DNA of 64,000 bases from Desulfobacterales bacterium (GCA_016209225.1 JACQWO010000025.1:14548-78547); one strand, 5' to 3'; positions 9,285-27,839 are shown, counted from the stretch's first letter. Numbers and translations: made by a program. The notes: generated by a model from the letters alone, not told the origin.

Positions 9285-9595
9285 AATCTCCGAGAGCTAA
9301 GGCGGTGTGCCTAATATGATCAATCTGGTAAAAAAGTACCGTGAAACTATACCGTGACTTTTGAAATCCGAAGCACGAAATTTAAAACAAATTCAAATCC
9401 CAAAATTCTAATGTTCTAAACTGTGTTTTGAATTATGGTCATTCGATATTAGGATTTGTTTAGGATCTCGATATTTTATATTCGAATTTATCAATTCTGA
9501 ATATCGAATAATAACTGTTATCGATTAATTGTAAGTATCTTACTGAAACGATATCCTAGAATGATAGATATAGACAAAGGAAAGGAGGAGGGGAG

Positions 9596-10777: not shown

Positions 10778-10821
10778 AAGAGTGGAGGCGTATTTAATGA
10801 CTTCCATTGAAAGGGGGAAAT

Positions 10822-11952: not shown

Positions 11953-11954
11953 GT

Positions 11955-13631
11955 ATGATCAACTTCATTCGCAATATCATAGCGGAGGATTTGAAGGCAA
12001 ACAAGAATGGCGGTCGGGTCCATACTCGATTTCCACCGGAACCAAACGGCTATCTGCATATCGGACATGCCAAGTCTATCTGCCTTAATTTTGGTCTTGC
12101 CGCTGAAAGCCACGGTCTTTGCAATTTACGATTCGATGATACCAACCCCAGTAAAGAAAGCACTGAATACATTGAATCAATAAAATCGGATATCAAATGG
12201 CTTGGTTTCGATTGGGGTGATGGACTCTTTTACACATCTGACTATTTTGAGAAGCTATACCGGTATGCTGTACAGTTAATCAAAAAGGGGAAGGCGTACG
12301 TTTGCGACTTGAGTCCAGAGGAGATTAGAGAGTACCGTGGCACCTTGACCGAGCCTGGCAAAGACAGTCCTTATTGTAAGCGTTCCGCAGAAGAGAACCT
12401 TGACCTGTTCGAACGCATGCGGGCAGGAGAATTCGAGGAAGGCTCCCGGGTGCTTCGAGCAAAAATCGATATGTCATCCCCAAATTTAAATATGCGTGAT
12501 CCGGTACTTTACCGTATCCTTCGCATACCACATCACCGAACGGGCGACAAGTGGTGCATATATCCCATGTATGATTATGCCCATTGCCTTTCTGATTCCA
12601 TTGAAGGGATTACACATTCTATTTGTACGCTGGAATTTGAAGATCATCGTCCGTTATACGATTGGGTGCTTGACCAACTGAACGTCGATTGCCATCCGCA
12701 GCAAATCGAATTCGCTCGTCTCAATCTGAACTACACAGTGATGAGTAAACGTAAGCTTCTGGAATTGGTGGAAAACGGACATGTCAGCGGATGGGACGAT
12801 CCACGGATGCCTACACTATCGGGTCTGCGGAGACGCGGATACACACCAGAGTCAATCCGAAACTTCTGTGAACGCATCGGAGTAGCAAAGAGGGATAGTG
12901 TGGTTGATGTGGCATTACTCGAGCACTGTATTCGTGAAGACCTAAATCAAAGCGCCCCACGGGTTATGGCCGTGTTGCGTCCACTCCGGGTAGTCATTGA
13001 TAATTATCCGGAAGGTAAAATAGAAGAGCTGGATGCACCTTATCATCCGGATGACCCAAGTATGGGGTCACGGAAGATTCCGTTCTCACACGTGCTGTAT
13101 ATAGAACAAGAGGATTTTCTTGAGGATCCGCCGAAAAAGTTCTTCCGTTTGGCCCCTGGCCGTGAAGTGCGCCTACGATATGCTTATTACATCACGTGTG
13201 TAGATGTGGTAAAGGATAAACGAACCGGAGAAGTGGTCGAATTGCACTGTACTTATGATCCTGAGACACGCGGCGGTTGGTCTCGAGATGGACGCAAGGT
13301 TAAGGCTACGCTGCACTGGGTTTCTGGATTCCACTCTATCCCGGCTGAGGTACGCCTCTATGATCATCTGTTCACGAAAGAAAACCCAAACGAAGAAAAG
13401 GACAACATTGACTTCAAGACTTATTTAAATCCGAACTCGCTTGAGATTTTGACTTCGTGCCGTGTTGAACCAGTCCTTGCAAATGCCACACCGGGGAGTC
13501 GGTACCAGTTTGAAAGGATCGGCTATTTCAGCGTCGATTCAGTTGATTCATCCGATGGAGCGCTGGTGTTTAACCGGACTGTGACGTTACGTGATTCGTG
13601 GACAAAGATCGCTAAAAGGGAGAAGTTTTAG
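11955..13631 (+). CDS. glnS: Glutamine--tRNA ligase
   Basis: 558 aa. Contains the HIGH motif ([12 protein letters not shown]), KMSKS motif (VMSKRK), and colinear similarity to E. coli GlnRS throughout ([36 protein letters not shown]). Confidence 0.95.
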
Positions 13632-13651
13632 AATGGCTGGGAGATTTTTAA

Positions 13652-13725
13652 TGGCTGGGAGACCAGGATTCGAACCTGGGTTGACGGAGTCAGAGTCCGT
13701 AGTCCTGCCGCTGGACGATCTCCCA
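13652..13725 (-). tRNA. tRNA-Gln (anticodon CUG), CCA encoded
   Basis: The reverse complement folds as a cloverleaf. It has a U1-A72 acceptor pair, a GGTTCGAATCC T-arm, the anticodon loop CTCTGAC (anticodon CTG), discriminator G and a 3' CCA. It closely resembles E. coli tRNA-Gln and sits next to glnS. Confidence 0.85.
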
Positions 13726-13870
13726 GTAAGATATGTTTACTGCATCTTTGCTTCTTAATTTATATACAAAGGCATAAAAAAGTCAACAAAAAAAACCTGC
13801 CCCTTTGTTTCAGTTTCCAATAAGATTTATACCTATTCTGTTAGATGCAATAATTATAATAGGGGGAAAC

Positions 13871-14452
13871 ATGAGAGGAAAAAATATAATTATCAGCATG
13901 GCAATCGTTTTTTTCTTGTTTTCCTTGCTGTTAAAGCCCACCGTTGCGTCCGAAGAAAATATTTCTAGCTATCATGAAACAATTTCTGTCCTTCGAGAAC
14001 TATATAAAGATGAGACTACTGCCTACAAGACTTATTCAGTATTTGCAAAGAAGGCCATGGAAGAAAAATATGATAGCGTTGCTCGACTTTTTAGTGCATT
14101 AAGCGAATCTGAATCAGTTCACGCACGTAATTTCAAAAGTATTTTGGAGGAAATAGGTGTTACATTAGAAGAATTTCCAGAACCCGATATTAAAGTAAAG
14201 ACCACGAAAAAAAATCTAAAATTTTCTCTAAACACGGAACTTTCCGAGATTGACACTACGTATCCAGGATTTATTGAAAGAATAAAGCCAGAGGGCAATG
14301 AAAGGGCTTTGGTAGATATAACTTATGCATGGAAAGCAGAGATGCAGCACCGGGATTTGATAAAAGGGGGAAAGTCAGCCATTTGGCTTTTATTTGGGAA
14401 GATTGCCGAGGACGATTTGGGGACGTTGTTACTTACGTTGCAAAACTCTTGA
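13871..14452 (+). CDS. Secreted ferritin-like / rubrerythrin-family diiron protein
   Basis: Signal peptide MRGKNIIISMAIVFFLFSLLL. Two E..H-type ferritin-like motifs (ALSESESVHARNF and AEMQHRD). Start chosen at the ATG with the RBS GGGGGAAAC. Confidence 0.5.
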   Translation: MRGKNIIISMAIVFFLFSLLLKPTVASEENISSYHETISVLRELYKDETTAYKTYSVFAKKAMEEKYDSVARLFSALSESESVHARNFKSILEEIGVTLEEFPEPDIKVKTTKKNLKFSLNTELSEIDTTYPGFIERIKPEGNERALVDITYAWKAEMQHRDLIKGGKSAIWLLFGKIAEDDLGTLLLTLQNS

Positions 14453-14483
14453 CAGCGCTGTCAGAAGTTGGTAGAATTACGTT

Positions 14484-15455
14484 ATGCCACGCCAAGCCCG
14501 CTTAGATATCCCCGGCGCCCTGCACCATATCATGGTACGGGGGATCGACAAATCAAACATCTTCCGCGATACTCAGGACAAAGCCCGGTTCCTTGAATGT
14601 CTCGGGCAGAACGTCCAGGACGCCAAATGTTCTGTTTACGCATGGGTGCTCATGGACAACCATGTTCATATACTGTTCCGGAGCGGACAAGGCGGCATCT
14701 CATCTGTCATGAGAAAGCTCCTTACCTGGTACGCCCAATACTTCAACCGCAGGCACGGCCGAAAAGGACATCTCTTTGAAAACCGTTATAAATCCATCCT
14801 GTGCGACGAAGATAATTACCTCCTTGCCCTTGTCCGTTACATCCATCTCAACCCCGTTCGGGCAGAGATCATTCAGACCATGACAGAGATGGACAAATAC
14901 CCATGGAGCGGCCATCCAGCTATTATTGAAAAGGCAAAATACCCATGGATGGATACTGCAACGGTATTGGCGCAATTCGGAGGCATGAAAAGAAAAGCCA
15001 CTGCAGAATACCGGCGGTTTATGCAGGAAGGCATGAATCAGGGACATGAGCCCCAATATTCCGGTGGCGGGCTTGTACGGAGCCTCGGAGGGTGGTCCAA
15101 TGTCCTCTCTATGAGACGGAAAGGCCGGAAGGAAGAGACAGACGAGCGGATCCTTGGGAGTGGTGATTTCGTGCAGCAAGTAATAACGGAGGCAGAAGAC
15201 AAGTCGCTTCGGCAGATGAAGCTCAAAAGATCAGGATTGACGCTGATAAAAATCATCGAACAAGAATGCAAGAAAGGGCAGATCAGCCGGATAGAGCTGG
15301 AGAGCGGCAGTCGCCGGTCAAAGGTAAGCTGGACGCGTGGACAGATCGCCCGACGCGGCATTGAAGAGATCGGCCTCTCAGCGGCTGAGATTGCGCGACA
15401 TCTCGGCGTAGCCACGTCAAGCATAACGCGGGCGATTGCAAAGATGGAAGTCTGA
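14484..15455 (+). CDS. IS200-like Y1 (HUH) transposase domain fused to a DnaA domain-IV-like HTH; RayT/REP-associated tyrosine transposase-like
   Basis: The N-terminus PGALHHIMVRG...AWVLMDNHVHIL (HuH motif)...RYIHLNPVRA matches the Y1 transposase fold. The C-terminus GLSAAEIARHLGVATSSITRAI resembles the DnaA C-terminal HTH. It is the first gene of the GC-rich island. Confidence 0.7.
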   Translation: MPRQARLDIPGALHHIMVRGIDKSNIFRDTQDKARFLECLGQNVQDAKCSVYAWVLMDNHVHILFRSGQGGISSVMRKLLTWYAQYFNRRHGRKGHLFENRYKSILCDEDNYLLALVRYIHLNPVRAEIIQTMTEMDKYPWSGHPAIIEKAKYPWMDTATVLAQFGGMKRKATAEYRRFMQEGMNQGHEPQYSGGGLVRSLGGWSNVLSMRRKGRKEETDERILGSGDFVQQVITEAEDKSLRQMKLKRSGLTLIKIIEQECKKGQISRIELESGSRRSKVSWTRGQIARRGIEEIGLSAAEIARHLGVATSSITRAIAKMEV

Positions 15456-15506
15456 ACTACAACGCAACGCAACGTAAGTAACAACGTCCCCAAAGTCCTT
15501 ATTTAA

Positions 15507-15659
15507 GCGGCGGTAGATGCGGATTGGTTCCTTTCGCAAGAGAAAGCGATTACAGCCGTTCCAACATTTGTGATGAATCATGATAAGTTGGTTGGTGCGC
15601 AGCCCTACGAGATGCTGGAAAGACTTATGGAAGCTCATGGGGTTAAAAAAAGGAAATAA
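15507..15659 (+). pseudogene. DsbA-family (FrnE-like) thiol-disulfide oxidoreductase, C-terminal roughly 50-aa remnant
   Basis: The open frame reads ...AITAVPTFVMNHDKLVGAQPYEMLERLMEAHGVKKRK* with no start codon or N-terminal domain. It follows the Y1/DnaA-IV gene directly. Confidence 0.45.
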
Positions 15660-15732
15660 ACATAGATCAGAAACTAAAAAGCAATCCATTTTTTTGACAT
15701 AGCCATCTGCCACACCAGACAGGACAGGGCTG

Positions 15733-15766
15733 CTCTCTGGTGAGCAGCAGGTTTTTTCTGATTGGA
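15733..15766 (+). terminator. Rho-independent terminator-like hairpin followed by a T-run
   Basis: GCTGCTC-tctggt-GAGCAGC followed by aggTTTTTTct. It sits just downstream of the DsbA remnant. Confidence 0.45.
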
Positions 15767-16056
15767 TATTCCCTGTGCTCTGCATCACATCATGTGGTGC
15801 GGGGGGATCAATAAAGCCAACATCTTTTCATAAATCCGGCCTTCTCTCCATGAACCGAATTCCTTCCTGCTTCCCACCTGCCCGGCGCTCGGTGCGGACA
15901 GGTGTCCCCAAACCCTTGTCATGACGGGTGTCGAAAACGGCGGCTTGTTTGGCTCGCTTCTTGCGTTAAATACTTTCCGCGCCTCCGTGCCTCTCTCTGT
16001 GGAAAGAGCCGATGCCTTTCCACTGCCTGAGAATTGCGGCGCAAAAGGAGTTTCCT

Positions 16057-16851
16057 ATGTGGAAAGGTCTGATGACCTCAGTACTGCTTGCTTTTATCTT
16101 CCTCGCCCTTCCCCCTGCGCAAGGGGCGATGCAGCAAGTGACGGCGAATAGTGGACGGTACAAAGTCCCGATTCTACTCTATCACCGCTTCGGACCCGCT
16201 GTGGCTGACGGGATGACCTTGACCACGCAGGTGTTCGCGTCCCATCTGGAATACCTCGCTAAAAACGGCTACACCATTATCCCTCTGAGGAAACTGATTG
16301 ATTTCTATCTCAGGAAAGTCCCTGATCTCCCTCCCAAATCAGTGGTGATCGTTGTTGACGACGCTCACAAATCGGTCTATACCGATATGTTGCCGCTGGT
16401 CAGGAAATATTCCATTCCGGTCACGCTCTTCATCTACCCGTCGGCGATCTCGAACGCGACCTACGCCATGACCTGGGATGAGTTGAGAGCGTTGAAGAAG
16501 ACCGGATTCTTCGATTTTCAGTCGCACACCTATTGGCACCCAAACTTTCTGAAGGAGCGCCGAAAGCTGGGGCCGGCGGATTTTGAAAAGTTCGTGGATA
16601 CGCAGATGAAAAAACCACTCATCAAGATCGAGAAGGAACTGGGCATCAGACCCGACATGCTCGCCTGGCCCTTCGGCATCTATGACGACTATCTCATCGG
16701 AAAGGCCAGGGAGGCGGGATATATCGCCGCCTTCACCATCGAACGCCGGCGCGTGTGCAACCGCGACGGCCTTCTGAAGCTCCCGCGCTACCTCTTGATC
16801 AATGCGGACACGGGGAAAAAATTCGAGAACATTCTCGCAGGGAAAGGATAA
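16057..16851 (+). CDS. Polysaccharide deacetylase (NodB-homology, PgaB/IcaB-like), secreted
   Basis: Signal peptide MWKGLMTSVLLAFIFLALPPAQG. IVVDDAHKSVY and WPFG are NodB-homology motifs. Confidence 0.8.
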   Translation: MWKGLMTSVLLAFIFLALPPAQGAMQQVTANSGRYKVPILLYHRFGPAVADGMTLTTQVFASHLEYLAKNGYTIIPLRKLIDFYLRKVPDLPPKSVVIVVDDAHKSVYTDMLPLVRKYSIPVTLFIYPSAISNATYAMTWDELRALKKTGFFDFQSHTYWHPNFLKERRKLGPADFEKFVDTQMKKPLIKIEKELGIRPDMLAWPFGIYDDYLIGKAREAGYIAAFTIERRRVCNRDGLLKLPRYLLINADTGKKFENILAGKG

Positions 16852-16858
16852 TTGCAAC

Positions 16859-18178
16859 ATGAAACTTCATAATCACCGGGCAGCCATGTTTCTTGTATTT
16901 CTAGGCTTTTTGTTTGCCGTCCCGTTCCCGGCCTTTGCGGACGGATATGCCACGGGAAGGGTGGTCGATTTCGAGACGAAAAGACCGATCGCTGGGGCAA
17001 TCTTGACACTCCCGAACGAGGTGGTCCGCACGGATGAACAGGGCATGTTCACCATGAAATCCCCTGCGGCAAAGGTCGGCGTGCGGGCATGCGGGTATCG
17101 ACGGGGAGAGGTCACGCTTCCCGCTCTTGCACCGAAGAGCCCCTTGCAGATCGCTCTCCTGGCATTCACTCCCAAGGCACTCTATCTCACCTATTACGGG
17201 ATCGGGGACAGGAAACTGAGAAACTCGGCGCTCAAGCTCATCGACGAGACGGAGCTCAATGCGCTTGTGATCGATGTGAAGGGCGACAGGGGCGTGGTCA
17301 CCTATAAGACGGAAGTCCCTTTCGCTAATCAGATCGGCGCGCAGAAGCTGATCATCGTGAAGGACATAAGAGAACTGATCCGTTCCCTGAGAGAGAGGGG
17401 GGTTTACACCATCGCCCGGATCGTCGTCTTCAAGGACAATGTGCTTGGAACGGCGCGTCCCGACCTTACCATCCGGACCCAGGACGGAAGTGTCTGGCGC
17501 GACCGGGAAAATCTCGTCTGGGTTGATCCTTCGAAACAGGAAGTCTGGGAGTACAACATCAGCCTCGCGGTAGAGGCCGCCAGAAACGGTTTCGACGAAA
17601 TCCAGTTCGACTATGTGAGATTCCCGGACAGGAAGGGATTGAAATTCGCGGTACAGAACTCTGAAGAGAACAGGGTGAAGTACATATCAGGTTTCCTCAA
17701 GGAAGCAAAAAGGCGGCTTGCCCCCTACAATGTTTTTCTCGCCGCCGATATCTTCGGGTATGTGTCATGGAACCTCGACGACACCCAAATCGGGCAGAGG
17801 CTCGATGCGGTCGAGCCGCATGTCGATTACATCTCTCTCATGCTCTACCCATCGGGGTTCCAGTTCGGGATCCCCGGTTACCGGAATCCCTTGGCTCATC
17901 CCTACGAAATCGTCTCGCTTTCGCTGAAGAAGGCACAGGAAAGGACTGCTATTCCAGCGGTCCGTTTTAGGCCGTGGCTGCAAGCCTTCAGGGATTATGC
18001 CTTTGATCGGAGGCATTTCACGGGAACCGAGATCAAAATGCAGATAAATGCCTCCAAGGACTTCGGTTCCGGAGGATGGATGCTCTGGAATCCGCGGAAC
18101 GTCTATCTCGCCGACGGACTGAAGCCGCGTGAGAAGGTCATGCGAATGGGGGCCAGGATTCATGATCCTCAGGGGTAA
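16859..18178 (+). CDS. Secreted putative glycoside hydrolase (DUF4015/GHL-type TIM barrel)
   Basis: Signal peptide followed by ALYLTYYGIGDRKL...ALVIDVKGDRG...DEIQFDYVRFP, which is typical of the DUF4015 (YngK-like) family. Confidence 0.5.
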   Translation: MKLHNHRAAMFLVFLGFLFAVPFPAFADGYATGRVVDFETKRPIAGAILTLPNEVVRTDEQGMFTMKSPAAKVGVRACGYRRGEVTLPALAPKSPLQIALLAFTPKALYLTYYGIGDRKLRNSALKLIDETELNALVIDVKGDRGVVTYKTEVPFANQIGAQKLIIVKDIRELIRSLRERGVYTIARIVVFKDNVLGTARPDLTIRTQDGSVWRDRENLVWVDPSKQEVWEYNISLAVEAARNGFDEIQFDYVRFPDRKGLKFAVQNSEENRVKYISGFLKEAKRRLAPYNVFLAADIFGYVSWNLDDTQIGQRLDAVEPHVDYISLMLYPSGFQFGIPGYRNPLAHPYEIVSLSLKKAQERTAIPAVRFRPWLQAFRDYAFDRRHFTGTEIKMQINASKDFGSGGWMLWNPRNVYLADGLKPREKVMRMGARIHDPQG

Positions 18179-18182
18179 GGCA

Positions 18183-20573
18183 ATGCAGTGCCCGGCGAAA
18201 CCGCTCCATTCTGTGCTCCTGTCTGTGCTGGTCGTGCTTGCGTTCCTCCTGTGCGGGGCGGCCTCCCAGCCGATCTATAAACCCCTCTCTTTACCCTCCC
18301 TGAGCGGGGAACAGCTTACGGGTCTCGACTCCCTCGTGGAAACCGCGATCAGGGAAGGAAAAACCCCGGGCGCCGTTGTCCTTATCGGCAACCGGGAGGA
18401 AATCCTTTACTCCCGCGCCTTAGGTTTCCGGTCACTTGATCCGGAGAAGGTAGCCATGAGCGAGGACACCATTTTCGATCTTGCCTCGCTTACCAAGGTG
18501 ATTGCTACCTCGACCGCGGTCATGCAACTAGCCGAGAAAGGAATCCTCAATATTGACGCTCCGGCAGCGAGGTACTGGCCCGCCTTCGGTAAGAACGGCA
18601 AGAAGCGGATCACGATTCGCCAGCTCCTTACCCATTATTCCGGTCTCCGGGCCAACCTGAAGCTGAAACCGGGCTGGTCCGGATATGAAGCCGCCATGAG
18701 GAAAATCATAGCGGAAAAGCCCTTGCGTCCTCCTGGATCGGGTTTTATCTACAGCGATATGAATTTCGAGGCCTTGGGAGAGATCGTACGCCATGTATCG
18801 GGATTGCCGCTCGATCAGTACTGCGCGCGGCATATCTTCACGCCGCTCGGGATGAAGGAAACGGGATTTAAGATTTCTGCCGACCTCAGGAACCGCATCG
18901 CACCCACGGAGTATCGGAAAAACAGGCTTATCTGTGGAGAGGCACACGATCCCGTATGTTACTTAATGGGAGGGATCGCCGGGCATGCCGGCCTGTTCTC
19001 CAGCGCCGCCGATCTCTCGATCTTCGCGCGTATGCTCCTGCAGGGAGGCGAATACGGAGGTGCCAGAATTCTCTCCCCCCATACCATCGAGACGATGACC
19101 ATCCCCCAGTCTCCGGGAGTCAGGAACGCACGGGGGCTGGGATGGAATATCGAGGCGCCCTTTGCCTCGAACAGGAACGAGCTTCCCTCGGCGGGCGCGT
19201 TCGGACATCTGGGGCACACCGGGACCTCGCTCTGGATTGATCCGGTGACGGGAGTCTACGTGATTTTGCTCACCAACCGGGTACATCCCGACGGCAAGGG
19301 GGACGTGAAGGAGCTCAGGGTGCAGATCAGAGGCCTGATCTCCAGTGCCCTCGGGCCGCTCTCGGAGACGCAGATCCTTGCCAAAAGACCTACCCTTTCC
19401 CGATACTTCGAAAAGATTGGTCACGGGACCTCCGGCCGGCGGGCAGAGATGGTTGCTACGGGTATCGATGTCCTCAAAGAGAGCGGATTTCCCCTCTTGA
19501 AGGGAAAACGTATCGGGCTCATCACGAACCACACGGGTCTTGATTCCTCAGGGACCCGCACGCTCGACCTGCTGCGCAGGGCAAAAGGGATAAGACTAGC
19601 GGCAGTCTTCAGTCCTGAGCACGGCCTGTACGGAGATGCCGACGCAAAGATTGCCTCGCAGCGGGATCCGGCAACGAACCTCACTGTCTACAGTCTTTAC
19701 GGAGACCAGCGGCGGCCCACGCCGAAAATGTTCGCGGGGCTAGACGCCATTGTCTTTGATATTCAGGATGTGGGGGTCCGCTTCTACACCTATATCACCA
19801 CCATGGGATATGCGTTGGAAGCCGCGGCCAAGGCGCGGATTCCTTTCTATGTCCTCGACCGGCCCAACCCCCTTACCGCCATCCGGGTACAGGGGCCGGT
19901 GATGGACAGGGAGATGAAGTCCTTTACCGGATATTTTCCCATGCCGGTGCGCCACGGTATGACCGTAGGAGAGCTGGCAGGACTCTTCAACGGCGAGTAC
20001 GATATTGGGGCGGAGCTGCATGTCGTGAAGATGAAGGGATACCGCCGGGATGCCTGGTTTGACGAGACGGGACTGATGTGGGTAAACCCTTCGCCCAACC
20101 TTAGGAGTATCACGGAAGCCGCTCTCTATCCCGGGGTCGCCATGGTAGAGGGCGCGAATGTGAGCGTCGGCCGGGGGACCAGCACCCCCTTCGAGCTTTT
20201 CGGCGCGCCATGGGTCCGCGGACGGGAGCTTGCGGATTACCTCAATCTCCGGAAAATTGAGGGCGTCGAGTTTCTTCCCGTCGAATTCACACCCGAGAGT
20301 TCCCTCTACAAAGGAAGTACCTGCCGCGGCACGCGCATCCTCCTGAAAGATCGCGGCACACTGGACTCTGGGCTTCTCGGGATCGAGATCATAAGCGCGC
20401 TTTACCGGCTCTTTCCGCAGGATTTCAAGATCGACGAGACGCTCGCCTCGATAGGCTCGCAGCAGATTCTGGAGGCAATCAAGGACGGAGTGAATCCGCG
20501 GACGATTGCGCTCCTGTGGAAGGAGCCGCTCAAACATTTCCTCGGGCTGAGGGAAAAGTACCTGCTTTATTGA
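18183..20573 (+). CDS. Serine hydrolase (beta-lactamase/PBP4-like fold) fused to DUF1343 (NamZ-like exo-beta-N-acetylmuramidase) domain
   Basis: Signal peptide, then the SxxK motif ASLTKVIATS and the YSDMNF region. The C-terminal about 400 aa carry the conserved DUF1343 sequence (GLITNHTGLD, VFDIQDVGVRFYTY, GEYDIG). Start set at 18183 to avoid overlap. Confidence 0.7.
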   Translation: MQCPAKPLHSVLLSVLVVLAFLLCGAASQPIYKPLSLPSLSGEQLTGLDSLVETAIREGKTPGAVVLIGNREEILYSRALGFRSLDPEKVAMSEDTIFDLASLTKVIATSTAVMQLAEKGILNIDAPAARYWPAFGKNGKKRITIRQLLTHYSGLRANLKLKPGWSGYEAAMRKIIAEKPLRPPGSGFIYSDMNFEALGEIVRHVSGLPLDQYCARHIFTPLGMKETGFKISADLRNRIAPTEYRKNRLICGEAHDPVCYLMGGIAGHAGLFSSAADLSIFARMLLQGGEYGGARILSPHTIETMTIPQSPGVRNARGLGWNIEAPFASNRNELPSAGAFGHLGHTGTSLWIDPVTGVYVILLTNRVHPDGKGDVKELRVQIRGLISSALGPLSETQILAKRPTLSRYFEKIGHGTSGRRAEMVATGIDVLKESGFPLLKGKRIGLITNHTGLDSSGTRTLDLLRRAKGIRLAAVFSPEHGLYGDADAKIASQRDPATNLTVYSLYGDQRRPTPKMFAGLDAIVFDIQDVGVRFYTYITTMGYALEAAAKARIPFYVLDRPNPLTAIRVQGPVMDREMKSFTGYFPMPVRHGMTVGELAGLFNGEYDIGAELHVVKMKGYRRDAWFDETGLMWVNPSPNLRSITEAALYPGVAMVEGANVSVGRGTSTPFELFGAPWVRGRELADYLNLRKIEGVEFLPVEFTPESSLYKGSTCRGTRILLKDRGTLDSGLLGIEIISALYRLFPQDFKIDETLASIGSQQILEAIKDGVNPRTIALLWKEPLKHFLGLREKYLLY

Positions 20574-20731
20574 ACCCGGCAGCCACCGGTTCCTTCATCG
20601 GCGAGATACTGCACCAGTGCTTTTTCTTTTGTCCTTGCAATTTATGGCTCAGGGTGTATACTTATCCAAAAGAGGAAGGCAGGTTTATAATGCCATGACC
20701 TTTTTAAATTTACAGTTAATGAAAGTGAAAA

Positions 20732-21154
20732 ATGAAAAGTCTTAGACGTGGTGGTAAGTTTGGCAAAAAGGATTCAAATATGTCCGATAGAGGGGTTTCA
20801 AAAAGGCCTTCTCGGGGAGGTTTTAGCAGGGGCGGAGGAAGGGATTCGGAAAGGCCTGCTTTTGACAAGCAGATGTACAAGGCTACCTGCCAAAAATGCG
20901 GGGACAACTGCGAGGTTCCGTTTAAGCCTACCGGAGGTAGACCCATCTACTGCCGGGATTGTTTTAGGACAATGGAAGGTTCCGAATCGCCAAGACCAAA
21001 ACAGTTTGGAAAACGCGAATATCCCAGATCAAGGCGTCCCGACAATTTTAAGAAAAGTGAATACTCCGAATCAGCAAGGCCCGATCAATTCAAGAGGGAA
21101 CTGGACCAGATAAACTCAAAGCTGGATAAGATTTTAAGAGCACTGGAAGATTAA
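20732..21154 (+). CDS. Arg/Gly-rich zinc-ribbon protein (CxxC-x16-CxxC) with a C-terminal coiled coil
   Basis: RGGFSRGGGRDSERPAFD...CQKCGDNCEVPFKPTGGRPIYCRDCF, then low-complexity RP/K-rich repeats. Confidence 0.5.
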   Translation: MKSLRRGGKFGKKDSNMSDRGVSKRPSRGGFSRGGGRDSERPAFDKQMYKATCQKCGDNCEVPFKPTGGRPIYCRDCFRTMEGSESPRPKQFGKREYPRSRRPDNFKKSEYSESARPDQFKRELDQINSKLDKILRALED

Positions 21155-21322
21155 TAAATCTTATTTTATGACCAAAAAGAAAAGCTTGACGGCTTGTTGC
21201 CCAAACCCATTCATAGCCATATATCTGTTGCACCAGACAGGCCAGAACCGCTCGCTGATGAGTAGCAGGTTGGGCCTAAAATATATTTAATTAATGCCCA
21301 AAATAACATATAATACACATAC

Positions 21323-21571
21323 ATGGTTAAAACCGGATACAAATTCACCGAATACTTTGAGAAAGAGGTTCTGAGAAAACGGCCGTATATAAAAAAAGAA
21401 TGGTGTGTCAGCGTGATAGAACGACCGCTCAGAGTTGAGCCGCAAGAACATAACCGCTTCCGGTTCTGGGGTGTGATTCCAGAACTTGAGGGCCGAATAA
21501 TACGAGTTATTACGTTAAGCGACAAGAAAACCATTCACAATGCATTTCCAGATAGGGGGTTCAAATCATGA
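21323..21571 (+). CDS. DUF4258-family small toxin-like protein
   Basis: 82 aa, overlapping the DUF2283 gene by 4 nt. The family assignment rests on size and gene arrangement. Confidence 0.45.
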   Translation: MVKTGYKFTEYFEKEVLRKRPYIKKEWCVSVIERPLRVEPQEHNRFRFWGVIPELEGRIIRVITLSDKKTIHNAFPDRGFKS

Positions 21572-21783
21572 AATTAAACTACTATCCGGAGACCGATTCT
21601 CTATATATAGACCTATCAGAAAAATCAAGTGTAGAGAGTCGCGAGATTTCCGAAGGTGTTGTCCTTGACTATGATGCAGAAGGTATTCTGGTGGGTATCG
21701 ATATCGACAATGCCAGCACAAAAGTCCAGCTAAAAGAGTTAAGCCTTCGAAAACTGCCAGCAGATATAAAGGCAGTGGCATAG
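21568..21783 (+). CDS. DUF2283-family protein (antitoxin-like partner)
   Basis: MKLNYYPETDSLYIDL...GVVLDYDAEGILVGIDIDNAS is the canonical DUF2283 signature. Confidence 0.6.
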   Translation: MKLNYYPETDSLYIDLSEKSSVESREISEGVVLDYDAEGILVGIDIDNASTKVQLKELSLRKLPADIKAVA

Positions 21784-21829
21784 CCAATCAATCCAGCGAA
21801 TCGGCCTTAAATCCGGCCTCCCGCTGATT

Positions 21830-21925
21830 GCTTCGTTTCCCCCCTCGCTCCGCTCGGGGGGAATGCGGCGCTGAGCGGTTGTGCCTGCCCTCCGCTTCGC
21901 TCCGGGAGAACCAGGCACAGGAGAC
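21830..21925 (-). repeat. REP-like structured element, 5'-truncated copy in inverted orientation
   Basis: The reverse complement equals the right two-thirds of the 125-bp unit: GTCTCCTGTGCCTGGTTCTCCCGGAGCGAAGCGGAGGGCAGGCACAACCGCTCAGCGCCGCATTCCCCCCGAGCGGAGCGAGGGGGGAA. Confidence 0.6.
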
Positions 21926-21929
21926 AAAG

Positions 21930-22304
21930 ATGAAAGTTTCGGAACTGTTCGATCCTGCCATCAAGGGAAAGAAATCGGGAACGGAACGGCATCACCTTTT
22001 CCCCAAGAATTATCTGAAGAAAATGAATATAACCGAAATCCGCGATACGAATCAGATCGCCAACTATGCCTTAGTCGAATGGTCCGATAATATCGAAATC
22101 TCCGACAGCTCGCCTGAAGAGTACTTGCCGCAGTATATTGACCGCTTCAGCCTGGATGAACTGAAAGACATGTACTACTGGCACGCTCTGTCGGATGGTT
22201 GGGAAAACATGGCCTATGAGAAATTTCTTAAAACCCGTCGAAATGGGATGGCAAAGGTAATTCGTGACGGATTCCAGAAGTTATGCGACTTGTCCGATCA
22301 ATGA
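21930..22304 (+). CDS. Stand-alone DUF1524-like (GmrSD C-terminal HNH-type nuclease) domain protein, probably a truncated remnant
   Basis: ERHHLFPKNYL...IANYALVEWSDNIEIS resembles the DUF1524 H..P and N motifs. No DUF262 half is present. The RBS AGGAGA and ATG sit immediately after the REP-like fragment. Confidence 0.4.
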   Translation: MKVSELFDPAIKGKKSGTERHHLFPKNYLKKMNITEIRDTNQIANYALVEWSDNIEISDSSPEEYLPQYIDRFSLDELKDMYYWHALSDGWENMAYEKFLKTRRNGMAKVIRDGFQKLCDLSDQ

Positions 22305-22419
22305 GGAGGTAAAACATGGAAACCAAGACGTACTTGGGGCCGTTGTTCCTATTTGATCTTTTTCTTGTGTGAGAGGTGGCATATACGAACGCAGAGATCG
22401 GAGAGATTTTTGGAAATAA

Positions 22420-22824
22420 TCAAAACTTTGTAAAGGCTCCTGATATGCTTATCTCTTTCTGTATTCCGTATTTCTCCATCCTCCGACGGAGGCTGTTTCT
22501 GTTTATACCCAGTAATGTAGCTGCTTTAACCTGATTCCCTTTTGTTTTTTCCAGTGCCTTTATTACCAGTATCTTTTCCAGATAAGAGAACGTGTCTAAA
22601 TCTTCTTTTGTCGAGAGGGAAGATGCCACTTTGAGAAGTCTATCTAAAATCCCATTCAACCCATAGTCCAGATTCTCCTCTTCCCTTAAGGAATAAACTC
22701 CGTTCGTATCCTCCTCAAAAGAGATGTCTTCAGGGATGATAATATTACTCTTACATCTAATAATAGCCTTCTTGACAACATTCTCAAGCTCTCTGACATT
22801 GCCGGGCCAATGATAACCCATCAA
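22420..22824 (-). pseudogene. Sigma54-dependent activator, C-terminal fragment (134 aa): end of the AAA+ domain plus the Fis-type HTH
   Basis: About 80% identical to the C-terminus of the intact regulator gene 27840-29285 (YHWPGNVRELENVVKKAIIRCKS...LLGINRNSLRRRMEKYG). There is no receiver or Walker region, so I call it a remnant. Confidence 0.6.
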
Positions 22825-22893
22825 CAGTATTTGGGGTCAGGCTTCGGTAATTAGGTATTGACATTCTTATCGTTCTTTGATAGACAGTTATTT

Positions 22894-23868
22894 ATGGCTC
22901 GTAGACCTCGAATTCATTTTCCAGGAGCTTTGTATCATGTCATCACTAGAGGGAATCGAAGACAGGGGATATTCCTTGATGAAAAAGATTTGGAGAAGTT
23001 CCTTGCCTATATTGTGGATTATAAGTCCAGACACTCTTTCCATCTTTATGCTTACGCTTTGATGAAAAATCATCTCCACCTTCTTGTGGAGGTTGAAGAG
23101 ACACCTTTGAGCAAAATCATGCAATCTCTCTTGTTTCGTTATACGCGTTATTTTAATAGGCGATATGGTGAGGTGGGGCATCTTTTTCAGGGACGATATA
23201 AGGCGATTGTGTGTGACAAGGATGCTTATCTTTTAGAATTGGTTCGCTATATTCATTTGAACCCCGTTCGGGCAAAAATTGTGAATATGCCTGAAGATTA
23301 TGGGTGGACTGGTCACCTCAGTTATTTGGGAAGAGGTAGGAATGATTTAATTGATGAGGGTTTTATGTTAGATCAATTGAGCAGGGACATATCTTTGGCG
23401 AGGCGGAGATACCGTCAATTTGTATGGGAAGGGATTGCAAGTGGGCACCAGGAGAAATACTACGAGGTCAAAGATCAGCGGTATCTTGGAGAGGACAGTT
23501 TCATTAATCAGATCGAAGTGGGAAGGAACAAGCCTGAAAGCTGGGTTTATGATGTTCCACTGGAAGCTATATCTCAGGAGGTGAGCAGAGTTACAGGGAT
23601 TACGGAAGAGAGGTTGTACTCTGGGACGAGAGATCGCGAAGGGGCGCGTGGGAGGGGCTTAGTGGCATACTTGGCCAAGACGGTATCGAATTATATGGTG
23701 AAAGATATAGCCAGCCATTTCAAGCGGAGTCCTGTTACTATAGGAGAGGCAATCATCAAGGTTGAAGATATTCTGAAGAGTGATAGTTCATTCGAGAAGG
23801 AGCTAACACGCATGGGGGAGAATCTGATCCAGGGGAGGAAGAGAAAATACCGTATTTCCGTTGCCTGA
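22894..23868 (+). CDS. IS200-like Y1 (HUH) transposase domain fused to a DnaA domain-IV-like HTH (second, low-GC copy)
   Basis: MARRPRIHFPGALYHVITRGNRRQ...YALMKNHLHLL...RYIHLNPVRA. The C-terminus LVAYLAKTVSNYMVKDIASHFKRSPVTIGEAIIKVEDIL resembles DnaA domain IV. The track ORF starts at a TTG at 22858. Confidence 0.7.
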   Translation: MARRPRIHFPGALYHVITRGNRRQGIFLDEKDLEKFLAYIVDYKSRHSFHLYAYALMKNHLHLLVEVEETPLSKIMQSLLFRYTRYFNRRYGEVGHLFQGRYKAIVCDKDAYLLELVRYIHLNPVRAKIVNMPEDYGWTGHLSYLGRGRNDLIDEGFMLDQLSRDISLARRRYRQFVWEGIASGHQEKYYEVKDQRYLGEDSFINQIEVGRNKPESWVYDVPLEAISQEVSRVTGITEERLYSGTRDREGARGRGLVAYLAKTVSNYMVKDIASHFKRSPVTIGEAIIKVEDILKSDSSFEKELTRMGENLIQGRKRKYRISVA

Positions 23869-23932
23869 CCCCATTCTTCTGGACCCCATTCTTCTGCATT
23901 CTTCCTTGACCCCATTCTTCCTAAATTTTTCA
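23869..23932 (+). repeat. Three direct repeats of GACCCCATTCTTC immediately 3' of the Y1/DnaA-IV gene
   Basis: tgACCCCATTCTTCtggACCCCATTCTTCtgcattcttccttgACCCCATTCTTCc. Confidence 0.5.
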
Positions 23933-24029
23933 ATATGTTATGATTCCTCTTTGGCTAACTTTAATAAAGTCCAAAAATCCTTTAAAAATGTGGGGTTACG
24001 TTATTACTTAACGTAGTAGTATTAGTTAA

Positions 24030-24233
24030 TTGCCCGATTCCAGTAAAATGACAAGAAGAGAAACAAAGAATATAACAGGTCTTACCAGGATTGAAGGCAT
24101 TCCCTATCACGATGCGTGGGTAGGTTTTATCTGTCTTTCTTGCGGCTTACTCAATAACATTCGAATCGGGCTTCAGCTTTTAGACCCTAAAACCACATAC
24201 GAAACTGCTGAAATCATACTGGAAGCAATGTAA
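24030..24233 (+). CDS. Small ORF with a CxxC pair; possibly the frameshifted N-terminal part of the HNH endonuclease
   Basis: ...GFICLSCGLL... The +1 frame stays open across the ORF's stop codon and encodes further CxxC pairs (CNACGRILP...CRSCKG) that lead into the HNH ORF. Confidence 0.25.
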   Translation: MPDSSKMTRRETKNITGLTRIEGIPYHDAWVGFICLSCGLLNNIRIGLQLLDPKTTYETAEIILEAM

Positions 24234-24249
24234 TGCTTGCGGCCGAATT

Positions 24250-24879
24250 TTGCCCTTTGCTGCATTTAGCAAACATTCAGGGTGGGGGCCACTTGAACGG
24301 CAAATGGAATGCAGGAGCTGTAAAGGCGCAATAAATGCAGTGCTGAATCCGAAACGAACCAGAGAGCAATTACACGAATCATCGGTCAGGAGAAGGATTG
24401 CGGATTTATTGCTGGAAGGGGAAAACGAAACAGTTGATATAGCGGATTTGTTTAAAAGATTTGGCAGTCGTTGCTTTAAGACAAAGCAACTGCTTGATAT
24501 TAAGAAAAGAGATTCTTGGGCGATTGACCATATCTTGCCTTCAAGATGGCTCTATCCCTTGACAAAAGAAAATGCAGCATTGTTATCAACTGAAGCGAAC
24601 AACAATAAACGAGATAAATGGCCAAGTGAGTTTTATACCAACAACGAATTGATTGAACTTGCCAAAATAACTGGAGCAGATTTAGGATTGTTATCCAGCA
24701 AAACCCCTATCATCAATACCGATATCAATGTCGGTAAATGTGTTGAACGGTATTTGCAAGTCAGGGAAAGGTCTCATTTGCCAAAAAGAATTAATGAGTT
24801 GAAGAAAATTCTGAAAGATTACAATCTTGTTGATAAACTCTCTCGAAGGAATAAAAAATTGTTGGGATTTACTAAGTAA
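24250..24879 (+). CDS. HNH endonuclease (putative restriction nuclease), probably disrupted at its 5' end
   Basis: WAIDHILPSRW...STEANNNKRDKWP is an HNH motif. Zinc-ribbon CxxC pairs lie upstream. There is no in-frame ATG until residue 18; the track start is a TTG. It converges on the methyltransferase gene with a 3-nt gap. Confidence 0.5.
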   Translation: MPFAAFSKHSGWGPLERQMECRSCKGAINAVLNPKRTREQLHESSVRRRIADLLLEGENETVDIADLFKRFGSRCFKTKQLLDIKKRDSWAIDHILPSRWLYPLTKENAALLSTEANNNKRDKWPSEFYTNNELIELAKITGADLGLLSSKTPIINTDINVGKCVERYLQVRERSHLPKRINELKKILKDYNLVDKLSRRNKKLLGFTK

Positions 24880-24882
24880 ATT

Positions 24883-27543
24883 TTACTGCAAAACTAAATA
24901 CTGGTGTGAAGTAACGGTTCCCTTATCACGTATTCCGTGCGATTCGCAATGCTCCACATTTTCCACAAACAAATCAACGATATTGAACCAGCGTTTGCTT
25001 ACCTTTTTTAATTCTTCTGCCATATCGCATTTAATGCTTTTTCCTAAATGCAAAACGCAAACGCCGCCTCGTTTCAGCCGCTCTCTGGATTGTCTGAAGA
25101 TACCTTCATAAATTGCAAAGTCCTTTTTCTGCTTTTCCTCAATATATGAGTTTATCTGATATTTAAAATCATTTTCTGACCATCCGCTAAACCAAATTCT
25201 TATCCAGTTTGCAAGATAAAACCTTGTGCTGTCAAAGAATGGAGGAGAAGTAATAACCGCGTCAAGATTATTTATCTCTTGCGGCCAGATAGATGTTGAA
25301 TCTTGATTATAGATTTTCCCTGGAATAAAATTCAAAGGCAATTCCACTTTCAATGTTCTTTCAACTTTGTCGGTGAGATTTTTGATTAAGTTTTTATAAA
25401 CAAATTCTCCTTGCGGTGCATAAGGGACAATCGGGTGCGACCGTCTGCTCAAGGCATACGGCCTGTTGCCGTGTAGAATATGAAGCAGAGAAGATATTAC
25501 AAGCATTTGGCTTGGATTTTCAGGATAATTAAGTTTTAAAAACCTCCTTGCCAGCAAAATTTCTTTAAGTGTTTTTTCCTCATAATATTCAGCAAGTGTT
25601 TTGTTAAAGCCAAAATGCTTTGCTTCATTCAATTCTTCTTTTGTGCATTTATTTTGCTCTATGAATTCTGCCATCTGCTGAATGTAATTTAAACACTCGT
25701 TTTTTTTATGTATGCTAACCTTAGCAGTTGAAATATAGTAAGCGGGTATGCTGATGTCAAACCCATAAGATCTCCTTCCGTTTAATGCTGCCTCAAAAGG
25801 AACCGTCCCTACTCCCGAAAATGGGTCAAGAACACTGCCGTTTTCCGGGACAAATGTTTTGACAAGGTGATGGGCGATAGATGCCTTTAATTTCCCTTGA
25901 TAAGAGCAAAGGGAATGAAGCGGATTGCCCCAGTTTCTTTTGGAGTATGGGAGTTTTTGGTAGGGCAGGTTATCTTTAAAATGCTCCCAATTCCCCGGAT
26001 TGAAGATTTTTATCTTCTGTTTTTCCTCTGGCATGTATGTTGATTTATTAAATTCTAACACCAGCAGCGTTTGGCTCAATACTTCCTTATTTCTTGACCT
26101 CCGTTTTCTTAAAAGTTTTTTCTCCTTTAATTCATATCCAAGTGCAGCCAATATTTCAATCAGAATATCATCGGTCTTAATGTGAACATCAGCAAAAATA
26201 GAGTCGCCAATATCAATCAAAATTTTTGCTCGGTCTCTTAAGTGTTCTCGCAGATTGGAAAAAATGGCATACATTTCTTCAAAATAACTTTTCGCCATTA
26301 TCGGAATACGTTGGTCATACGATTTTTTATACAGTTTTACAATGGTGTCCTTTAGTAATTTATTTTTAATCATTATGTCCGTTCCGCTGCTGCCCGAAGC
26401 TGCTTTTTTCACATCGTTAATTCCGCTGGTAAGTGCTTGGTCGCGGAAAAGTCGCAAGTCGTCTCCAGACTGGATGTATCGCAGAAACCACAACTCCAGT
26501 TTGGTGTTTCTAAAATAATTTGTCCCGTTAAGATAGGGCGGGCTTGTAATAATAGCGTCAATATTTAAATCATTTACCATATCAATATATTTTGCATTGG
26601 AAAGAATCATCTCCGGTGCCGCCTTTAACACAAATTCCAAATTGAGAATGTCATTGGCTATCTCTTTCAATTTATTTGGTAAAAATTTTCCCAATTCAAC
26701 CTTTGCTTTTTCCAGTTCATTTTTGGTCTTAAACCTAACATCACCCGCCTTTTTCAGAAATGAAACAGGAATTAAGGCAGCCAAAATAGCGATGGTAATA
26801 GTATCCGCCAAAAGTTCATCTTCCAATTTTACAATGTCAATAAATGAGCGTAGACGGAGAATCCGGGTAAAAACATCGTCCTCAAAATATCTGCTGTTGC
26901 CGAAAATGAGACCGTAACTTTTTTTCAAATACTTGTCTTCCTCAAAGTTTTCAATCTTCTCAACGAGTTGCCCTGCAATTTGGGTTACCTTCTCTGCTAA
27001 CTGTTTTCGTATTGTAAAACTTGATTTCAGAATTTTGATTTTTGTATGTATAAGAAATTGAAGAAGTGGATTGATTTCTGAATAAACAGTCTTTATATTT
27101 AATTGGGAGGCGGCAAAAATGGTGGTTCCGGTTCCAATAAATGGATCGTAAATGCAAGCTGCTTTTTTACAATAATTGTTAATAAGAGATTTTACAAACT
27201 CGGGAGAATAACCTTCAATGAAAGGATACCATCTCTGAAAAGGAATTGACTTGCTGCCAATAAAGGTTACATCACGGGGATTAATGATAGAAAATCCGTT
27301 AAGGTTCTTTTTGATTAAGCGTTTGACAACCTGGTTGAGCGACCTTTCCTCTTTCTCAGAAAACAGTGCTAATTGCTTATAACTTTTAATGCCGATTAAT
27401 TCTCTTAACTCCTCGCTGCTCAATTCTTTTATTTTCGTGTAATAGGGCGCTTCCGGCTCGTTGAATGCCAATGTGATTGATTTTTCTTTTGAGTCATCTG
27501 ACGGATAGTCGTCAAAGTAAATGGATTTGAAGTATTGTCCCAT
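24883..27543 (-). CDS. Tandem two-domain DNA methyltransferase (amino-MTase; two FxGxG ... SPP[YF] modules), Type IIS-like
   Basis: 886 aa. The first half carries DPFIGTGTT and ITSPPYLNGTNYF. The second half carries LDPFSGVGTV and ITSPPFFDST. The SPPY/SPPF catalytic motif is the N4-C/N6-A amino-methyltransferase type. Confidence 0.75.
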   Translation of the reverse strand: MGQYFKSIYFDDYPSDDSKEKSITLAFNEPEAPYYTKIKELSSEELRELIGIKSYKQLALFSEKEERSLNQVVKRLIKKNLNGFSIINPRDVTFIGSKSIPFQRWYPFIEGYSPEFVKSLINNYCKKAACIYDPFIGTGTTIFAASQLNIKTVYSEINPLLQFLIHTKIKILKSSFTIRKQLAEKVTQIAGQLVEKIENFEEDKYLKKSYGLIFGNSRYFEDDVFTRILRLRSFIDIVKLEDELLADTITIAILAALIPVSFLKKAGDVRFKTKNELEKAKVELGKFLPNKLKEIANDILNLEFVLKAAPEMILSNAKYIDMVNDLNIDAIITSPPYLNGTNYFRNTKLELWFLRYIQSGDDLRLFRDQALTSGINDVKKAASGSSGTDIMIKNKLLKDTIVKLYKKSYDQRIPIMAKSYFEEMYAIFSNLREHLRDRAKILIDIGDSIFADVHIKTDDILIEILAALGYELKEKKLLRKRRSRNKEVLSQTLLVLEFNKSTYMPEEKQKIKIFNPGNWEHFKDNLPYQKLPYSKRNWGNPLHSLCSYQGKLKASIAHHLVKTFVPENGSVLDPFSGVGTVPFEAALNGRRSYGFDISIPAYYISTAKVSIHKKNECLNYIQQMAEFIEQNKCTKEELNEAKHFGFNKTLAEYYEEKTLKEILLARRFLKLNYPENPSQMLVISSLLHILHGNRPYALSRRSHPIVPYAPQGEFVYKNLIKNLTDKVERTLKVELPLNFIPGKIYNQDSTSIWPQEINNLDAVITSPPFFDSTRFYLANWIRIWFSGWSENDFKYQINSYIEEKQKKDFAIYEGIFRQSRERLKRGGVCVLHLGKSIKCDMAEELKKVSKRWFNIVDLFVENVEHCESHGIRDKGTVTSHQYLVLQ

Positions 27544-27746
27544 AGAAGATTTTCTCTCTGTAATTATGAAAAAACTGATATATTATGATAGTTGTTTCAT
27601 AAAATTTTGTCAACAGTTTTTATTCTTATTCTTGGTGGTGAAAAAAATGGGGGGGTAGAGTGGGGGGTCGCATCTTAGAAAGTTTAGGGACGGTGTCCAA
27701 AATTATCACTTAACAAAACACTTAATTGAGATAAAAAGGTATTATT

Positions 27747-27839
27747 ATGCCCCGACAAGCAAGATTGGATGCGCAGGGAACCCTTCACCATGTGATGATC
27801 CGCGGTATTGAGAGAGGCACGATATTTTGTAATAAATAA
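27747..27839 (+). pseudogene. Y1/IS200-like transposase-like gene, N-terminal 30-aa remnant
   Basis: MPRQARLDAQGTLHHVMIRGIERGTIFCNK*. The first 20 aa are homologous to the N-terminus of the 14484 gene. The stop abuts the stop codon of the sigma54 regulator. Confidence 0.5.

Follow-up and report, generated by a model that had tools for sequence, protein, structure and literature searches.

Two genes in a 64,000-nucleotide stretch of Desulfobacterales DNA (GCA_016209225.1 JACQWO010000025.1:14548-78547; the whole stretch is referred to here as the window) encode proteins with a Y1 transposase domain of the HUH type, and three short direct repeats follow the second of them, raising the question of whether such genes are domesticated or associated with repetitive extragenic palindromes (REPs), as an earlier note on this DNA held, or whether they are parts of mobile units, and of what the repeats represent. 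Gene 1 (14484–15455, + strand, 323 amino acids) and gene 2 (22894–23868, + strand, 324 amino acids) are intact open reading frames (ORFs), and the elements that contain them, here called A and B, belong to the published TIRYT/TIRtron family, for which the fusion of a Y1 domain to a DnaA C-terminal domain has already been described. The reading that we consider probable is that A and B are TIRtron units encoding a RayT-like Y1/HUH protein with a helix-turn-helix (HTH) domain and moving in the manner of insertion sequences (ISs), the triple repeat consisting of the tip of B and reiterations of it. To our knowledge, every Y1 transposase studied so far acts on single-stranded hairpins; if the reading is true, the combination of a Y1 enzyme with a duplex-binding domain and with ends that are inverted repeats would represent a mechanistically different form of DNA movement.

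RayT-like genes bounded by terminal inverted repeats were named TIRYTs, residing in TIRtrons, by Di Nocera, De Gregorio & Rocco 2013 (BMC Genomics 14:522, PMC3733652), who give GGGGWSAS as shared by the repeats at a constant distance from the gene and describe extra solo, dimeric or clustered repeat copies in some genomes. Elements A and B agree with that description in the RayT-like Y1 gene, the terminal inverted repeats in place of REPs and the near-constant spacing, and they differ in no defining feature, the tip of A (GGGGACGT) fitting the consensus at 6/8 positions (PMC3733652). In the survey of Quentin et al. 2018 (BMC Genomics 19:475, PMC6006769), TIRYTs are placed in subclass 2.1 of TnpA_REP, with a C-terminal Bac_DnaA_C or HTH_23/28 domain and no nearby REPs, and GGGGWSAS is unlike a DnaA box; the window proteins share with this subclass (2.1.2) the Y-x3-NP motif, the length, the C-terminal Bac_DnaA_C (gene 2) or HTH_23/28-like (gene 1) domain and the lack of nearby REPs. 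The window brings no new kind of element; it supplies a clean, probably active example together with decayed copies. No experimental study of the TIRYT/TIRtron family was found in the searchable literature.

The catalytic domain is well defined in both proteins. Pfam Y1_Tnp is matched at E-values of 8.6e-14 (gene 1) and 2.7e-16 (gene 2); the HUH histidines and the tyrosine of RYIHLNP, an instance of the Y-x-x-x-N-P class 2 tyrosine signature found in both genes, are unchanged in alignments of 25 and of 79 homologs, the invariant residues being, in gene 2 numbering, H60, H62, Y119, N123 and P124. These features bear out the earlier note in placing Y1 proteins of the RayT type, with a C-terminal DNA-binding domain, at both genes. 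With 33% identity along the full length, the two proteins are distant relatives, in keeping with the old paralogs that had been proposed, and the difference in base composition noted then is confirmed by a GC content of 52.6% in gene 1 and 44.0% in gene 2, against a background of ~44%.

The predicted fusion of the Y1 domain to a DnaA-domain-IV-like domain is solid for gene 2, which is classified as a TIRYT of this architecture on Pfam, AlphaFold2 (AF2) fold and profile evidence. Bac_DnaA_C scores 36.7 bits against a Pfam gathering score of 31.5, the family sequence profile matches DnaA domain IV in searches of the PDB (E 1e-6 to 1e-5), and the C-terminal domain of the AlphaFold model (predicted local distance difference test score, pLDDT, 82.5) superposes on DnaA domain IV (1J1V; 3PVP similar) with a template modelling (TM) score of 0.87 and a root-mean-square deviation of 1.5 Å over 92 columns, residues ~222 to 310 covering the whole domain; the top PDB match of the model as a whole is the complex of E. 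coli TnpA_REP with a REP hairpin (4ER8, E 1.5e-7). Equivalents of E. coli DnaA R399 and R407 (R246 and R254) are nearly invariant in the TIRYT family, whereas the box-reading DHTTVLH of DnaA (E. coli D433, H434, T435, H439) is replaced by SPVTIGE in gene 2 and ATSSITR in gene 1, and the ends of A and B are unlike a DnaA box. The AAA+ and other DnaA domains are also absent; the full-length DnaA model TIGR00362 reaches 38.8 bits against a cut-off of 343.9, in a match confined to model positions 345–434.

For gene 1, classified from Pfam, NCBIfam, its AF2 fold and a profile alignment with the gene 2 clade as a TIRYT with a Y1/HUH domain and a short C-terminal HTH, the DnaA-like character of the C-terminus put forward in the earlier note holds less well than for gene 2. 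Bac_DnaA_C stays below its gathering score (E 0.064), and generic HTH models match the same protein, HTH_23 doing so at E 0.002, likewise below the gathering score; the pairing of Y1_Tnp with Bac_DnaA_C that a profile search had been expected to return is found in gene 2, with Y1_Tnp only in gene 1. The AF2 model (pLDDT 74.6) again has 4ER8 as its best fold match (E 3.8e-6), DnaA structures are absent from its top 50 Foldseek matches, and a profile search of the PDB gave no DnaA match, so that an independent DnaA likeness of gene 1 is unsupported by either search. The profile of the gene 1 clade aligns with that of the gene 2 clade colinearly through the HTH (probability 100%, E 3e-66), and it is indirectly, by way of this alignment only, that a Y1–DnaA fusion is suggested for gene 1.

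The absence of IS ends reported in the earlier note is contradicted by the terminal inverted repeats that bound both genes. Element A (14416–15494, + strand, 1079 bp), delimited by DNA homology limits and by its bounding inverted repeat, is a complete TIRtron of the GGGGACG end class, whose left repeat TTTGGGGACGTTGTTACTTACGTTGC (14416–14441, + strand) is complementary at 26/26 positions to the right repeat (15469–15494, − strand); the inverted-repeat score around gene 1 is 26, against a shuffle maximum of 11. A promoter-like site, TTGACA-17-TAGAAT (14449–14477, + strand; 11/12 consensus matches, with a TG extension), lies inward of the left repeat, and the mRNA of gene 1 is probably leaderless, as suggested by a −10 element that ends 6 nt ahead of the ATG. 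With its perfect 26-bp ends, element A appears to be a clean example, probably active. Element B (22833–23872, + strand, 1040 bp), delimited by homology limits against three related loci (L083–L085; comparison loci carry L numbers) and metagenome relatives, is a complete TIRtron of the GGGGTCAGGC end class. Its left repeat, GGGGTCAGGCTTCGGTAATTA (22833–22853, + strand), is followed on the 3′ side by TTGACA (22858–22863) and TAGACA (22881–22886); its right repeat (23852–23872, − strand; reverse complement GGGGTCAGGCAACGGAAATAC) encodes the last six codons of gene 2, YRISVA, and the TGA stop. The two arms of B match at 16/21 positions, the first 10 being identical, and both are tipped by GGGGTCAG, a fit of 8/8 to GGGGWSAS.

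These ends bear directly on whether the genes are ordinary RAYT (REP-associated tyrosine transposase) or REPtron genes, or IS200/IS605 transposases, acting on REP-like or subterminal hairpins, an interpretation that is very unlikely even though TnpA_REP is the best fold match and homologs are named ‘REP element-mobilizing transposase RayT’ in some sources. E. coli TnpA_REP (4ER8) provides the best catalytic-domain fold for both genes, has its own recognition sequences flanking its gene in inverted orientation, and probably nicks and rejoins DNA at them. RayT differs in being ~165 amino acids long, about half the length of the window proteins, in having no HTH, and in targeting GTAG-tagged single-stranded hairpins present in hundreds of dispersed copies, whereas the window elements have GGGG-tipped, non-palindromic inverted repeats and few extra copies. 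No REP-like hairpins flank gene 1 or gene 2, where the flanks are the non-palindromic inverted repeats, and on the NCBIfam model REP_Tyr_transpos (NF047646) the two proteins score 70.2 and 77.9 bits, respectively, both below the equivalog cut-off of 80. The IS200/IS605 transposases TnpA of IS608 and ISDra2 have the HUH/Y1 fold in common with them and presumably use the same chemistry (a 5′-phosphotyrosine intermediate), but these elements have subterminal hairpins on one strand and no inverted repeats, are frequently accompanied by tnpB, and encode proteins of ~130–150 amino acids; no tnpB-like ORF lies beside gene 1 or gene 2, and scores of 13.6 and 19.1 bits on transpos_IS200 (NF033573) are far below its cut-off of 55. 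The earlier judgement that these are not classical IS200 elements is accordingly sound, TnpB being absent and the IS200 cut-off unreached.

The boundaries of the elements are drawn independently by comparison with their relatives. Homology to element A is limited to window positions 14398/14417 to 15495/15496 in L082 (92.5% DNA identity) and L081 (83.9%), and relatives of gene 1 with 94% and 87% amino acid identity lie beside hisS and a PIN toxin gene and beside an RHS toxin gene, respectively. For element B the limits are 22829/22840 to 23872/23877 in L083–L085 (~87% nucleotide identity, with unrelated flanks), and the same limits with unrelated flanks are found at forty more metagenome loci of the gene 2 clade, the relatives of gene 2 with 82–84% amino acid identity lying between other unrelated genes. 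On these comparative grounds the elements appear to relocate as units: close relatives (84–92% nucleotide identity) are found in unrelated settings, and their homology extends no further than the tips of the repeats. A palindromic target of the form GGGGWC/GWCCCC was considered and ruled out, as the tips stay with the element from one context to the next. In L081 (11500–11665), 4.6 kb from the intact copy on the same 2.35-Mb contig, lies a mini-derivative of the gene 1 type with an internal deletion; it consists of a degenerate left arm, TTGACA and an ATG with 13 codons (MPRQARLDVPGAL) joined directly to the right arm. One exact protein lies ~130–370 nt from a contig end in 6/6 places shown, as repeats often do. 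Close homologs of each window gene number in the thousands, nearly all of 320–330 amino acids, and an exhaustive search of 50% identity clusters returned 2,104 (E<=1e-30) or 18,540 (E<=1e-10) across many phyla, the latter count probably taking in other RayT-like proteins.

The three direct repeats 3′ of gene 2 can be described with reference to the right end of B. Exact copies of GACCCCATTCTTC lie at 23867–23879, 23882–23894 and 23908–23920 (overall 23867–23920, + strand), and an exact search and Tandem Repeats Finder located no fourth in the 64 kb. The first copy is the right terminus of B, its tip GACCCC with 7 nt of flank, and overlaps the stop of gene 2, the GA of GACCCC being the last two bases of TGA; the other two reiterate this junction of terminal GACCCC and flanking ATTCTTC. 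Comparable reiteration occurs elsewhere in the family, with four copies of GACCCCAAGTAT at L119 and two or three units at L013, L074, L100, L121, L134 and L139, among others. When a junction 12-mer (made up of 7 flanking and 5 tip nucleotides) was sought within ~90 nt outside 192 family ends, it recurred at 25/192 (~13%), against 4/192 for control 12-mers shifted 30 nt further out, and in the opposite orientation at none. The reiterated units occur at either end, are ~12 to 55 nt long with variable spacing, and have as their inner limit 6–8 nt of the element in 22/32 cases. Two other tests discriminated poorly: extra GGGWS 5-mers were counted outside 18 ends, against 12–16 in controls, and a 10-mer of element sequence alone recurred 5 times against 0–2, this last weakness arising from the small share of element sequence in the reiterated units; of the three tests, the junction 12-mer is the valid one.

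Of the two options offered in the earlier note for the triple repeat, an element end and an array of iteron-like binding sites, the first is right and the second is unlikely, the nearest relatives, 83–87% identical, being without reiteration; likewise, the expectation that such repeats would recur beside homologs is borne out by junction reiteration across the family, with no other exact copy in the window and none beside the nearest relatives of B. A functional array that binds the DnaA-like domain, for instance by loading several protomers at the right end, is an improbable explanation, although DnaA domain IV binds repeated boxes, gene 2 matches 1J1V, each GACCCCATTCTTC copy retains the conserved terminal hexamer, and similar arrays recur across the family. 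Such arrays are missing from the nearest relatives of B (L086, L089 and L091; 82–85% amino acid identity) and exist at only ~13% of ends, with no fixed end, unit length or spacing, and the part of the unit contributed by the element is 6–8 nt, the remainder being locus-specific flank. The triple repeat is read instead as a sporadic scar, and not as a built-in iteron array, because the closest relatives of B are without reiteration; it would be a by-product either of DNA being nicked and rejoined or of replication slipping at an end bound by protein, with a likely preferred break just after GGGGWC, 6–8 nt from the tip. The triple repeat is thereby accounted for as something ordinary. There is a superficial resemblance to a replicon origin module in the presence of an HUH nuclease together with a DnaA-type domain and short direct repeats, and the genes could be imagined as rolling-circle initiators (HUH Rep proteins that also bind an origin) from integrated plasmids or phages that have since degraded, the repeats being origin iterons; this is scarcely credible given a fold of Y1 transposase and not Rep type, a conserved unit that is a single ~1 kb gene in chromosomal contexts, and the near absence of the family from plasmids and phages.

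Ends of the same kind are a general property of the family. Among 80 distant homolog loci (30–47% identity, many phyla), with 250 nt searched on each side of the gene, 68 were usable, and a flanking inverted repeat far above shuffled controls was found at ~50 of these; the repeats nearly always begin GGGGTCAG(G/A)C or GGGGACG(T/C), with tips in most loci 51–64 nt upstream of the ATG (64 nt in A and 60 nt in B) and 0–40 nt beyond the stop. A −35-like hexamer, TTGACA, starts 34–36 nt upstream of the ATG at 37/73 loci. Two end classes can be distinguished, GGGTCAG tips (27 loci) accompanying a DnaA-like ‘RD..S’ helix and GGGACG tips (43 loci) a generic ‘(I/L)S..(A/G)VS’ helix, and the window carries one element of each class (GGGGTCAGGC and GGGGACGY); the weak DnaA score of gene 1 is therefore explained. 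The pairing of end class with helix fits an HTH that would be the module reading the end.

The right arm, despite lying in coding sequence, changes together with the left. For 38 elements of the gene 2 clade, left and right arms were written as a pseudo-hairpin and compared with 500 shuffles and slid controls; the covariation score, which is inflated by shared ancestry, was 0.187 against 0.102 for shuffled arms (0/500 shuffles as high) and at most 0.078 for slid controls. Repeat positions 11–14 change jointly in both arms (A-T to T-A or C-G; C-G to T-A; G-C to C-G). These seemingly compensatory changes are supportive, not decisive, and could be accounted for in three ways: a single protein may read both ends, the ends may pair on single-stranded DNA, or one end may be copied from the other. 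Neither the two end classes, the right arm in coding sequence and the arm covariation nor the 6–8-nt scar boundary appears in the accessible text of the TIRtron paper (PMC3733652).

A separate regularity is seen in the left arms (L001–L080, A and B), which usually contain a pair of 7–8-nt direct repeats just inward of GGGGWS with a period of 8 nt, exemplified in element B by GGTAATTA/GGTATTGA; the best period was 8 in 27/56 loci, and the mean match was 5.5/7 against 4.4/7 in controls, with frequent overlap between the inner unit and the −35 element. These subterminal repeats may be binding sites for the HTH.

A TIRtron is a ~1.05 kb unit in which one TIRYT gene, with a promoter of its own, lies between two terminal inverted repeats whose tips read (TT)GGGGWC. 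The HTH domain would bind each arm in its subterminal, double-stranded part and so position the Y1 domain, which would nick and rejoin DNA near the GGGGWC tip, with the result that the unit moves like an insertion sequence. A more speculative extension, which we hold only tentatively, is that TIRtrons are autonomous insertion sequences with an undescribed transposition pathway, in which a monomer-type Y1/HUH nuclease would be brought to inverted-repeat ends by a duplex-binding module of the DnaA-domain-IV type; the arms might be read as a single-stranded ‘panhandle’, which would account for the compensatory arm changes, and cleavage might fall 6–8 nt inside the G-run, leaving ‘tip + flank’ units as footprints. 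The testable leads provided by the comparison are unit-wise relocation, co-varying arms, the two pairings of end class and helix, and the likely break point 6–8 nt from the tip.

Several points weigh against movement as TIRtrons or against parts of the scheme. The link of helix type to end class follows phylogeny and is confounded by the same shared ancestry that inflates the covariation score; the C-terminus of gene 1 is a generic HTH, not detectably DnaA-like on its own; and where cleavage falls is guessed from the limits of the scars. Neither an empty site nor an identical copy pair within one genome was found, and no target-site duplication is visible at element A or B. The empty-site search by way of the window GlnS gene returned only contigs 100% identical to the window, from the same genome; two contigs from Logan assemblies (L174, SRR12113399; L175, SRR12113406) are 100% identical to window 9092–14352 and 11684–15024, and one contig ends 64 nt before the left repeat of A. 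On plasmids the family is represented in 29/72,556 records, two of them full length, and it is nearly absent from phages; one full-length plasmid homolog is that of pSPTER from Sporomusa termitida DSM 4440, with ends GGGGTCAGGCC / GGCCTGACCCC. Quentin et al. 2018 also report no evidence for mobility of class 2 genes, and low copy number (PMC6006769), a conclusion from which the present comparison departs in finding relatives in unrelated contexts with homology ending at the tips. Movement of the units is accordingly what we infer from comparison.

The same observations bear on whether the genes are domesticated host genes whose inverted repeats are operators for autoregulation through the HTH and whose contexts differ by gene transfer or rearrangement. 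In favour of this account, an unlikely one, are the position of the left arm directly upstream of a conserved −35 element, the low copy number and divergent copies per genome given by published surveys, and the rarity of the family on plasmids. It is opposed by a downstream arm that has no promoter role and nevertheless matches the left arm, co-varying with it even inside coding sequence, by homology of relatives that ends exactly at both tips, and by the presence of at least four decayed copies in the window and of an internal-deletion derivative elsewhere. The earlier description as domesticated or REP-associated proteins is thus not sustained, there being no REP hairpins, scores below the RAYT cut-off, and relatives in unrelated contexts with homology ending at the tips.

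Movement as TIRtron units remains the favoured reading. Besides the two intact TIRtrons, at least four decayed copies can be recognised in the window sequence, in line with the several states of decay first proposed. An N-terminal remnant of a gene-1-type TIRYT (LDIPCALHHIMWCGGINKANIFS*) lies at 15759–15830 (+ strand; tblastn 73% identity over 22 amino acids, E 4.5e-4), and a solo A-type end-like sequence, GGGGTTACGTTATTACTTAACGTAG, at 23992–24016 (+ strand); its core, ACGTTRTTACTTA, occurs 3 times in the window (both A arms and this copy) against 0.09 expected. Decayed copy C (27686–27839, + strand) has an end-like AGGGACGG ~60 nt upstream of a 30-codon N-terminal remnant at 27747–27839, which is cut off by the 3′ end of an NtrC-like gene; this remnant, listed as a 30-residue N-terminal one in the earlier note, is confirmed by 67% identity to gene 1 over 27 amino acids (E 8e-8). 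What had been taken for a short stand-alone Y1 gene at 43972–44334 is a frameshifted, C-terminally truncated pseudogene on the minus strand, decayed copy D (43958–44383), in which the family left-end layout is kept, with GGGGAC at 44383–44378 (−55), TTGACA at 44363–44358 (−35) and ATG at 44328, and the Y-x3-NP motif is in another frame (43958–44026). Across the 64 kb, element end sequences are found solely at the elements and at the one solo copy.

The left neighbour of element A (52.6% GC) is a rubrerythrin gene whose last codons extend into the left arm, and its right neighbour is a candidate DsbA C-terminal remnant (Pfam DSBA C-terminus, E 0.024); A stands at the edge of a 54.8% GC island, ~0.7 kb from tRNA-Gln, so that the setting described in the earlier note is accurate as to the island, with weak support for the DsbA remnant. 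The island (15500–21150, 54.8% GC in a 44% GC background) starts directly after element A, ~1.8 kb from the tRNA-Gln gene (13652–13725), and its genes, encoding a polysaccharide deacetylase, a DUF4015 glycosyl hydrolase and a beta-lactamase–NamZ (exo-N-acetylmuramidase) fusion, are all cell-wall related.

Element B adjoins a truncated gene of the NtrC type, a C-terminal fragment (134 amino acids) of a sigma-54 response regulator at 22414–22824, which has 80–84% DNA identity to 27834–28241, the 3′ end of a full gene (27840–29285) 5.4 kb away; that 3′ end adjoins the TIRYT remnant of copy C. In the equivalent place beside the fragment, a degenerate GGGGCCGTTGTTCC (22336–22349) was considered as a further element trace and is too degenerate for a call. 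Between element B and remnant C, a low-GC block (24030–27543, 37.6%) encodes an 886-amino-acid minus-strand protein with two DNA-methylase regions (N6_N4_Mtase and MethyltransfD12) and holds a 209-amino-acid ORF with no Pfam match; it is probably an inserted island of the restriction-modification type.

Other repeats in the window stand apart from the elements. A family of ~110–136-nt repeats is found at 21837–21925 (−) and at 44687–44796, 46253–46378, 48057–48182 and 49483–49604 (+), with up to 100% identity between copies 26 kb apart; its layout is an 18-bp inverted pair (AATGCGGCGCTGAGCGGT / ACCGCTCAGCGCCGCATT) around two hairpins, followed by a C6/G6 hairpin, and its fold as an RNA has an energy of −83.7 kcal/mol (z −7.25). 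The repeats appear unrelated to TIRtron ends, having their own 18-bp inverted ends without GGGG. Rfam gave only one tRNA above threshold in the window, and no Rfam family exceeded its threshold over these repeats, three copies giving weak matches to GA-cis (23 bits against a gathering score of 34.7); they could be a miniature inverted-repeat transposable element or a structured RNA not yet described. At 5232–5323 and at 51229–51321, 46 kb apart, are two adjacent segments in inverted repeat (44 and 49 nt; 88–89% complementary), and a 29-nt inverted pair (36506–36534 / 38979–39007) encloses 2.4 kb.

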